DNA from: a virus
Lineage: Duplodnaviria; Caudoviricetes
IMG/VR virus record: IMGVR_UViG_3300008261_000142
Span: 1-57,729 of that record
Strand: one strand, 5' to 3'
DNA length: 57,729 bases
The notes below the pieces were generated by a model, which saw nothing but the letters and a program-made list of their open reading frames with translations, did no database searches and was not told where the DNA came from. A program made the translations under genes and the position numbers. Shown here piece by piece: positions 52,458 through 57,729 of this stretch. Numbering within the stretch: the stretch's first letter is position 1; the number at the start of each line of letters is the position of its first letter.

Positions 52458-52510
52458 GCGGTTTCGCCCTGCTGGGGCTCATCAGGCACCGAGCTATACG
52501 GTGCGACCGC
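52458..52510 (-). ncRNA. type III hammerhead ribozyme HHR1
   Basis: GCGGUC^GCACCG-UAUAGCU-CGGUGC CUGAUGA GCCC-CAGCA-GGGC GAAACCGC. Confidence 0.95.
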
Positions 52511-53951: not shown

Positions 53952-54004
53952 GCGGTTTCGCCCTGCTGGGGCTCATCAGTCGGCGCGATATACGCCGAGA
54001 CCGC
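53952..54004 (-). ncRNA. type III hammerhead ribozyme HHR2
   Basis: GCGGUC^UCGGCG-UAUAUCG-CGCCGA CUGAUGA GCCC-CAGCA-GGGC GAAACCGC. Confidence 0.95.
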
Positions 54005-54211
54005 TCAGTCATCACGCTCGATGCCAGTGAACTCTACAGATTCACGATCGAGCTCTTCGGATATGCTGACTGTTTCGGGGAAGATCATCTCTTCATGGAT
54101 GATCTTTCTTGCCTGTTCAAGAGTCAGGTTCGGGTTGTCGTGCTCGAAAGAATATTCGAGCTCTTCCCACACCCTGACTACGCGGCTGCCGTAGACGGTG
54201 TACTTGGGCAT
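54005..54211 (-). CDS. acidic hypothetical protein
   Basis: MPKYTVYG..; stop abuts HHR2. Confidence 0.7.
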   Translation of the reverse strand: MPKYTVYGSRVVRVWEELEYSFEHDNPNLTLEQARKIIHEEMIFPETVSISEELDRESVEFTGIERDD

Positions 54212-54420
54212 CAGCAGGCATCCTCCTCGGGCTGTCGTGAAGTGCTGTGGCGAGCGTGGCAATCGCGGAAGAACTGCGAGGACTTGCGGTAGATGTCCCT
54301 GAGCAGATCGACCGATTCCTTGTCTGCGATCAGGTACATCGTTTCCAGAGCAGCCCAGGCTGCGTTGGACAGAGCGATGCTCTGCTGGTACGCGATGGCG
54401 TACTTGGTCTTGTTTTCCAT
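54211..54420 (-). CDS. hypothetical protein downstream of HHR3
   Basis: MENKTKY..; TGATG-coupled to the next gene. Confidence 0.65.
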   Translation of the reverse strand: MENKTKYAIAYQQSIALSNAAWAALETMYLIADKESVDLLRDIYRKSSQFFRDCHARHSTSRQPEEDAC

Positions 54421-54422
54421 GT

Positions 54423-54475
54423 TCGGTTTCGCCCTTCTGGGGCTCATCAGCCGGCGGACTTTACGCCGGGACCGA
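54423..54475 (-). ncRNA. type III hammerhead ribozyme HHR3
   Basis: UCGGUC^CCGGCG-UAAAGUC-CGCCGG CUGAUGA GCCC-CAGAA-GGGC GAAACCGA. Confidence 0.95.
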
Positions 54476-54580
54476 GCACTGGTCCGCGCCGCAGTTGCGG
54501 CAACGGAACCAGTGCAGGTTGCCGAGCTGCCCTAGGAAGAACAGTTCGCCGTAGCAGTGCTTGCAGGTGTCAGGAGTCAT
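54461..54580 (-). CDS. 39-aa Zn-ribbon peptide overlapping HHR3
   Basis: MTPDTCKHCYGELFFLGQLGNLHWFRCRNCGADQCSVPA*. Confidence 0.7.
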   Translation of the reverse strand: MTPDTCKHCYGELFFLGQLGNLHWFRCRNCGADQCSVPA

Positions 54581-54887
54581 GTCGCACTGCTACGTGGACG
54601 TACTTGGCACCTGGCCGTACTTGCTCGCCCTTCCACACCACGGTGTGCGGGGAGTAGTTGTACGAATCGGTCATGCCATCGAACGACCCGTAGGAGTAGT
54701 CGTTCATCAGGTCACGCCAGAACTCCAGCGGCCTGCTCCGATAGGTCTCGAGGTCCACTTCGATGTAGACGCTCGAACCCATGGAGTAGGTGCTGGAACG
54801 GACGGACAGCGGCTTGATGCCGCTGTCCTTGAGATACGACCGGATCGCCTTGGCGGTCTCAGTCGTACTGAGCATTGTAACAGTCAT
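54570..54887 (-). CDS. LPD29-like domain protein
   Basis: ETAKAIR..LSVRS..YS.G.S..FDGMTDSY..GAKYV; GAGGA RBS. Confidence 0.7.
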   Translation of the reverse strand: MTVTMLSTTETAKAIRSYLKDSGIKPLSVRSSTYSMGSSVYIEVDLETYRSRPLEFWRDLMNDYSYGSFDGMTDSYNYSPHTVVWKGEQVRPGAKYVHVAVRHDS

Positions 54888-55086
54888 GTTCCTCTTCGAT
54901 GATGTCCACCAGACCGGCGATGAGCAGTTGCTCGTTGCCGTAGACCGCGTTCGCACCGCAGGTCTCGCACTTGTACTTTCGAGCATCGGGCTCAACTGCG
55001 AACGCTTGCGCGCCGCAGTTGATGCAATGCCCTTCGTTGCTGTCGAACAGTTCGTGTTCGTACAGCTTGAAGCGTTTCTTGATCAT
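54859..55086 (-). CDS. Zn-finger hypothetical protein
   Basis: GHCINCG..VEPDARKYKCETCG..VYG. Confidence 0.8.
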   Translation of the reverse strand: MIKKRFKLYEHELFDSNEGHCINCGAQAFAVEPDARKYKCETCGANAVYGNEQLLIAGLVDIIEEEHDCYNAQYD

Positions 55087-57150: not shown

Positions 57151-57205
57151 GCGGTTTCGTCCTTGGCTGGGACTCGTCAGTACGTGGCACCACCACGTAG
57201 ACCGC
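57151..57205 (-). ncRNA. type III hammerhead ribozyme HHR4
   Basis: GCGGUC^UACGUGG-UGGUG-CCACGUA CUGACGA GUCC-CAGCCAA-GGAC GAAACCGC. Confidence 0.93.
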
Positions 57206-57615: not shown

Positions 57616-57729
57616 TTTTGTATTCCGGAAATCGAAGCCTCGATTTTCGGAATGTACCAGGTTTGTAACATTTCTGTCATTCCGGAAATCGATGCTTCGA
57701 TTTTCGAAATGTACCAGGTTTGTAACATT
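57616..57729. repeat. terminal direct repeat, right copy
   Basis: Identical to 1-114. Confidence 0.95.

Follow-up and report, generated by a model that had tools for sequence, protein, structure and literature searches.

Is a self-cleaving RNA that cuts within a protein-coding gene, ahead of its stop codon, a device which couples translation to RNA processing, or is such an overlap the by-product of tight genome packing? The question is raised by positions 54423-54580 on the minus strand of a freshwater phage genome, the exact union of a 39-aa mini-gene and a hammerhead ribozyme, termed HHR3 here, which begins within the last codons of the mini-gene.

The phage record is complete, with 57,729 bases, direct terminal repeats and about 58% G+C, and this whole stretch is the window that was analysed. 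Long ORFs lie almost all on the minus strand, where small ORFs (about 57.2-52.4 kb) are followed by replication genes (primase, exonuclease, helicase and DNA polymerase at 46-35.5 kb) and then by the tape-measure and tail genes (18.8-5.9 kb). Four hammerheads, all on the minus strand, are situated in the small-gene end of the phage, a stretch that, by its position, looks like an early region. The minus strand shows no terminator-like site from 55937 to 51800, and HHR3, HHR2 and HHR1 are therefore probably located on one transcript. A terminator-like hairpin of 20 pairs (56901-56859) follows the small gene after HHR4. At 57617-57717, at the right end, an A+T-rich stretch that is palindromic or repeated gives several weak Rfam matches of the microRNA type on both strands; it probably represents a repeat or long hairpin close to the terminal repeat. 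The features considered are the following.

54423..54475, minus strand: HHR3, type III hammerhead ribozyme (Rfam, covariation, fold, own model)
54461..54580, minus strand: 39-aa mini-gene, putative zinc ribbon (codon-position GC, homologues, alignment, AlphaFold model)
54570..54995, minus strand: upstream gene with LPD29 domain (PF18847, phrog_15549)
54211..54420, minus strand: downstream 69-aa gene (ORF; no family match)
54476..54515, minus strand: strong hairpin inside the mini-gene (folding against shuffles and homologous loci)
53952..54004, minus strand: HHR2 (Rfam 43.0 bits, covariation, own model)
52458..52510, minus strand: HHR1 (Rfam 37.2 bits, covariation, own model)
57151..57205, minus strand: HHR4 (Rfam 22.2 bits; 67.6 bits with own model)

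HHR3, its sister copies and the mini-gene

Stem III of HHR3 is formed by a 5' strand at 54475-54471 and a 3' strand at 54427-54423; between them lie C17 (54470), stem I (54469-54464 with 54456-54451) closed by loop I (54463-54457), the core CUGAUGA (54450-54444), stem II with loop II (54443-54431) and GAA (54430-54428). CUGAUGA, GAAA and GUC are all found at the expected positions, as is the A15.1-U16.1 pair, and the core is fully canonical. Rfam family RF00008 (Hammerhead_3) matches 54477-54421 over its full length with 46.7 bits (E-value 5.1e-8 in a 7.7-kb search, 9e-11 in the genome), which is below the gathering score of 48.5, and there is no match at the gathering threshold. The sister copies HHR2, HHR1 and HHR4 obtain 43.0, 37.2 and 22.2 bits with the same family, with full-length matches for HHR1-3. 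While HHR3 shares with RF00008 the core, the three helices and the GUC cleavage triplet along the entire length of the family, the phage copies deviate from its consensus by a longer loop I and a shorter loop II and score below gathering; with the phage's own covariance model, HHR3 obtains 78.2 bits. HHR4, with the core CUGACGA (position 7 being the variable one) and a stem I of 8 pairs, folds as a perfect hammerhead.

Aligned with each other, the four copies, which all come from this one genome, have standard pairs in 60 of 60 pair cells and compensatory two-sided changes at seven of 15 pairs, five of these in stem I; none of 500 shuffles matches this, and slid controls are 29-50% paired. Stem III is nearly identical among the four same-strand hammerheads. 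The minimum-energy structure of each copy is a three-way junction with stems I and II looped and stem III open, which HHR3 retains in a 221-nt context, with an unremarkable fold stability (z -1.2 to -2.0; 7-24 of 200 shuffles fold equally well). By core, helices and covariation, HHR3 is confirmed at the sequence level as a canonical type III hammerhead ribozyme for which self-cleavage is predicted. The ribozyme that the initial annotation had described as cleaving inside the mini-ORF is thereby upheld, at correct coordinates.

Across the overlap the minus strand reads ...CAG TGC TCG GTC CCG GCG TAA AGTCCGCCGG CTGATGAG CCCCAGAAGGGC GAAACCGA AC ATG. The last 15 nt of the mini-gene (54475-54461), which encode S36-V37-P38-A39 and the stop, double as the 5' strand of stem III, C17, the 5' strand of stem I and the start of loop I. 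Codon 37 is GTC (54472-54470) and the predicted cut lies between 54470 and 54469; the stop codon TAA (54463-54461), with which the 7-nt loop I opens, is found 6 nt past this cut, which would remove two codons together with the stop. The TAA is the only in-frame stop, without which the ORF would continue through the ribozyme into the next gene, it falls exactly on the first unpaired codon past the cut, and it stands where HHR1 and HHR2 have TAT. Sequence and ORF list thus agree with the earlier description of a 39-aa ORF with CKHC..CRNC that ends TCG GTC CCG GCG TAA, with the GUC cleavage triplet as codon 37 and the TAA in loop I.

Is the ORF at 54461..54580 on the minus strand (MTPDTCKHCYGELFFLGQLGNLHWFRCRNCGADQCSVPA) a gene at all? 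The evidence says yes, because its G+C by codon position (0.55/0.49/0.87) is as in the confident genes of the phage, 204 matches at E<=1e-3 are present among 1.84 billion representative proteins searched, a motif is shared with these relatives, an AlphaFold model is available and the ORF overlaps with the upstream gene. The product has two CxxC knuckles, CKHC and CRNC (C6, C9, C27 and C30), and most relatives are of 35-75 residues with 50-70% identity over residues 5-35. An alignment of the query and 39 short relatives (35-57 aa), taken from the best 150 of the 204 matches, shows C9, G17, L19, G20, C27, C30 and G31 to be invariant in the 40 sequences, with the family motif C..C.G.L..LG.LG...WFRCR.CG.[DE]. 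The AlphaFold model (pLDDT 89) has three strands, the last of which comprises residues 33-36. The best Foldseek matches are generic zinc ribbons (TM 0.6-0.73; none at E<=0.001), a profile search against solved structures yields weak zinc-finger and rubredoxin matches (E 0.04 or worse) and phrog_33891 matches weakly (E 6.6e-4). No Pfam family, PF14354 Lar_restr_allev included, matches the mini-protein at E<=0.01; 13 of the 40 aligned family members match PF14354 at this threshold (best 2.4e-5), and Lar_restr_allev (restriction alleviation) is thus weakly matched by relatives but not by the phage's own mini-protein.

Conservation in the family stops near residue 35, beyond which the tails differ in length and sequence. 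The overlapped residues V37-P38-A39 fall outside the conserved, folded core, and the overlapped protein tail is dispensable. As this tail is outside the conserved fold, the 37-residue product of the cleaved RNA would, according to alignment and model, keep the whole conserved, folded domain.

The upstream gene, which matches PF18847 (LPD29; E 3.6e-6 and 28 bits, the cut-off being 27) and phrog_15549 and whose true start may be at an internal ATG, terminates with a TGA (54572-54570) 8 nt inside the mini-gene, and the resulting overlap of 11 nt is the usual layout for coupled translation. A stem of 11 bp (54594-54584 paired to 54560-54550) encloses the mini-gene ATG in its loop and also pairs the bases just before it, which, together with the upstream stop 8 nt past the ATG, suggests that the mini-gene relies for its translation on ribosomes arriving from the upstream gene. 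The operon contains a further candidate for a small zinc ribbon, the 75-aa ORF at 54859-55086 on the minus strand (CINCG...CETCG).

A clear Shine-Dalgarno sequence before the mini-gene ATG is missing, as it is for many confident genes of the phage. This bears on the explanation that ribozyme and translation do not interact, with HHR3 inactive or slow in vivo or the mini-gene untranslated. Besides the ATG without clear Shine-Dalgarno sequence in the loop of a stem, the score of HHR3 under the Rfam gathering score and a natural variant which alters the otherwise invariant G20 to A would fit such an explanation. On the other hand, the HHR3 core is canonical throughout and its helices covary, the mini-gene combines a strong codon-position bias with 204 relatives, the lack of a clear Shine-Dalgarno sequence is common to many confident phage genes and the overlap with the upstream stop has the layout usual for coupled translation, so that we consider the lack of any interaction quite improbable.

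Stop and start codons around viral hammerheads

Relative to the cut, the first base of the upstream stop is at -17 in HHR4, at -9 in HHR2 and HHR1 and at +6 in HHR3. HHR1 and HHR2 read TGA GCG GTC, with the upstream stop TGA at 52513-52511 and 54007-54005, respectively, and HHR3 reads TGC TCG GTC in the same frame. The next ATG follows the ribozyme after 14 nt in HHR4, where it is preceded by AAGGAG, after 0 nt in HHR2 and HHR1, which are directly followed by the ATG of a GP88-like gene (53951) and of a 75-aa gene (52457), respectively, and after 2 nt in HHR3, past whose last base the 69-aa gene without family match starts. With 0-2 nt to the ATG (54420, 53951 and 52457), a ribosome-binding site cannot be fitted in separately after HHR1-3; purines cluster only in loop II/stem II (AGAAGGG or AGCAGGG), 9-11 nt upstream.

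How unusual this arrangement is was assessed by a scan of viral contigs for the hammerhead core with one stem II pattern (at least 119 loci), followed by a search of these loci with the covariance model built from the four phage copies. Among the matches listed, 108 were outside the phage, with many loci carrying two to four, and a strict structural parse of the matches listed gave 57 non-redundant viral type III hammerheads from 43 loci; ORFs of 30 aa or more were judged by length and base composition. For the 32 upstream ORFs among the matches listed that have 60 aa or more and end within 150 nt, the median position of the stop is -33.5 (range -69 to -10), and the next ATG, again among the matches listed, follows at a median of 19 nt and within 2 nt in two of 55 cases. 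The phage packs its ribozymes against both neighbours far tighter than is usual.

In 12 of the 57 surveyed hammerheads among the matches listed, the cut is crossed by some ORF of 30 aa or more whose stop lies within the ribozyme; most of these were discounted because their composition was that of a wrong frame, because a better ORF lay upstream, or for both reasons. The crossing ORFs of L005 and L063 look like real proteins, and these two sites have a better type I reading that moves the cut 56 and 84 nt further on, respectively. The core at L005:9439-9488 (minus strand) can be closed as type III or, better, as type I, because CGGGUC UUAA is present both before and after the core; at L010 both sites are type I hammerheads by Rfam. 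A first ORF survey had flagged a stop within the ribozyme past the cut for 25 of 101 ribozyme matches, most of which were rejected, many being weak (under 33 bits) with non-canonical triplets and others showing wrong-frame composition with GC2 > GC3 in GC-rich DNA. A credible second ORF that ends after the cut was not found for the 57 other viral type III hammerheads among the matches listed.

Conservation of the overlap in homologues, proposed in the initial annotation as a check on coupling, did not emerge. A hammerhead is present in none of 24 viral loci with relatives of the mini-protein (within 2.5 kb, model search at E<=1), Rfam at gathering giving none at 20 of those 24, and in none of 80 metagenome loci (within 3 kb) that contain an upstream-gene relative of 34-49% identity. 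The exact hammerhead core pattern was not found in the viral or metagenome contigs searched, the upstream protein has no relative in the viral contigs searched, blastn against phages returned only the GP88-like gene (230 nt, 68%, Roseobacter phage CRP-114), and the collections searched contain no near relative of the locus. Across the loci compared, the overlap accompanies neither of the flanking gene families.

Four further freshwater runs contain contigs of strains with 99-100% identity, and no RNA run is listed among the sources of the stretch. Positions 54423-54475 are unchanged in contigs of three other runs, and one contig has four changes in the mini-gene, namely G20A, F14I and two synonymous ones. 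The change at position 54522 (C>G on the plus strand), by which the family-invariant G20 becomes A, is seen in contigs of two freshwater runs. Such near-identical contigs confirm the sequence and give little comparative power.

Predicted fate of the transcript if cut

The explanation that we favour, with modest confidence, is compaction, with the overlap as a mainly tolerated by-product and not a demonstrated regulatory switch. We infer that each of the four ribozymes severs the polycistronic RNA closely ahead of the following gene's start codon. The downstream piece would thereby obtain a 5'-OH and the stem I hairpin, its start codon being freed as the short stem III falls apart, and a 2',3'-cyclic phosphate would terminate the upstream piece. 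HHR3 takes the packing one step further, with the start of the ribozyme shared with the end of the mini-gene.

The upstream piece of HHR3 would end 7 nt past a stable hairpin, its 3'-terminal structure. This hairpin (54476-54515) ends 1 nt before stem III; the 55-nt stretch folds with -31.3 kcal/mol (z -3.44), a stability equalled in two of 200 shuffles, and is stabler than the homologous region in 24 of 24 loci (best -25.8, median -16.8). The extra-stable hairpin 5' of HHR3 hints at an added RNA-level design. Among the sister copies, the 55 nt upstream of HHR1 are also significantly structured (z -3.30), and those of HHR2 and HHR4 are not.

Since the predicted cut precedes the stop, cleaved HHR3 RNA would be without a stop codon and ribosomes that arrive at its end would need rescue as non-stop complexes. 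The non-stop 5' product postulated in the initial annotation follows from geometry if HHR3 cleaves, ending ...UCG GUC>p with no in-frame stop, and the proposed conflict between ribosome and ribozyme is equally consistent with geometry, as reading of codons 36-39 or of the loop I UAA requires opening of stems III and I, both of which ribosomes finishing the mini-gene on uncleaved RNA would have to melt. Ribosome interference is not specific to HHR3, as the stops of HHR1 and HHR2 are 1 nt before stem III. Bacteria rescue stalled ribosomes by tmRNA-SmpB, ArfA and ArfB. Such rescue may act on the HHR3 product, which would yield either a tagged, degraded peptide or an untagged one of 37 residues in which the fold is complete; the phage itself encodes neither tmRNA nor tRNA genes. 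The non-stop outcome, a consequence of geometry, may be tolerated or exploited. Against the tolerated by-product stands that one earlier stop, as in HHR1 and HHR2, would avoid a costly non-stop outcome, and the TAA at the first unpaired codon, unchanged in the contigs of three runs, is compatible with selection for the arrangement.

Selection for coupling would imply that ribosome traffic through codons 36-39 holds HHR3 unfolded and that thinning translation leads to cleavage, upon which the ribosomes on the stop-less fragment would be tmRNA-tagged, the mini-protein would be produced only in a short early burst and the same cut would release the downstream gene. The geometry fits, and the layout, unique among the surveyed hammerheads listed, is not what drift alone predicts, but the sister ribozymes avoid it and it is not conserved with either flanking gene family. 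Likewise, the TAA as the sole in-frame stop replaces the TAT of HHR1 and HHR2, and HHR3 with its TAA is invariant in the contigs of three runs, one of which has four changes in the mini-gene; these contigs, however, are 99-100% identical and say little. Dense and coupled translation is suggested by the 11 nt shared with the upstream gene, and a strong hairpin adjoins the ribozyme, yet the overlapped tail is dispensable, a release-factor-like rescue would free the untagged 37-residue full-fold peptide and thereby blunt the switch, and the phage encodes no tmRNA. Taken together, a selected coupling appears rather unlikely. Of the mutual coupling put forward in the initial annotation, the geometry stands, but a selected device is not supported, as the stops of the sister copies precede the cut and the overlap is unconserved.

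A more far-reaching proposal, which we regard as doubtful, is that the ribozyme constitutes a translation-gated timer, whereby one RNA cut switches expression between adjacent cistrons. Finishing ribosomes would keep the hammerhead unfolded until the cut removes the stop, which would lead to tmRNA tagging and decay, and the same cut would release the following gene's start codon, located 2 nt beyond stem III.

Alternatively, pairs of ribozymes could excise RNA that is circularised by a host ligase, with the overlap incidental to circular or trimmed RNAs. The HHR3-HHR2 and HHR2-HHR1 segments would measure 471 nt and 1494 nt, respectively, if excised, and four same-strand hammerheads would generate 5'-OH and 2',3'-cyclic phosphate ends, which suit RtcB-type ligation. 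The excised segments are, though, ordinary protein-coding genes, and we hold this explanation to be extremely improbable.

Known hammerhead arrays and the significance of the locus

Perreault et al. (2011; PMC3088659) describe prophage polycistronic RNAs with several hammerheads, for which they report cleavage both in vitro and in E. coli, and call the function of such prophage and phage arrays unknown; a processing role for hammerheads is suggested, as unproven, in PMC6765202, which still calls the phage function unknown. The array analysed here has in common with those arrays that several hammerheads are found within a few kb, on the coding strand and between small phage genes. The main text of that study describes the hammerheads as located between genes and does not use the term 'overlap', whereas the hammerheads of the present phage touch stop and start codons and one of them cuts inside the upstream ORF. 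The same main text reports a hammerhead array in Agrobacterium that flanks the anti-restriction gene ardA (PMC3088659).

Engineered hammerhead cuts inside an ORF cause ribosomes to be stalled at the 3' end with an empty A site, according to PMC7026593, and the HHR3 5' product would be a comparable non-stop RNA, the engineered cases being artificial and eukaryotic. PMC7967978 has tmRNA only in its reference list and PMC13725137 concerns eukaryotic RNA viruses. No natural phage hammerhead that cuts inside an ORF before the stop is described in the literature covered, which for PMC3088659 comprises the main text.

In many viral contigs (L011, L015, L077, L095 and others), two to four type III hammerheads share one strand over a few kb, and arrays therefore recur in uncultivated phages. 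RiboJ insulators, used in synthetic biology, are hammerheads in the 5' UTR, close before a coding sequence, that trim upstream RNA and leave a defined, hairpin-capped 5' end. Compared to RiboJ, the phage copies are natural, and HHR1-3 are without room for a separate ribosome-binding site.

Hammerheads are common in phages, and this phage offers a compact natural test case for their function; its layout does not demonstrate a mechanism but lends itself, as a natural case, to clean testing. Should cut and translation not interact, the locus still illustrates the extent to which bases can serve both a ribozyme and a coding sequence, the shared part being limited to a dispensable tail. Should they interact, it would represent a natural ribozyme-made non-stop mRNA in a bacterial system and would show concretely how a ribozyme can adjust the output of neighbouring cistrons relative to each other. 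If the ribozyme indeed acted as a translation-gated timer, bacterial hammerheads would gain a defined biological role.
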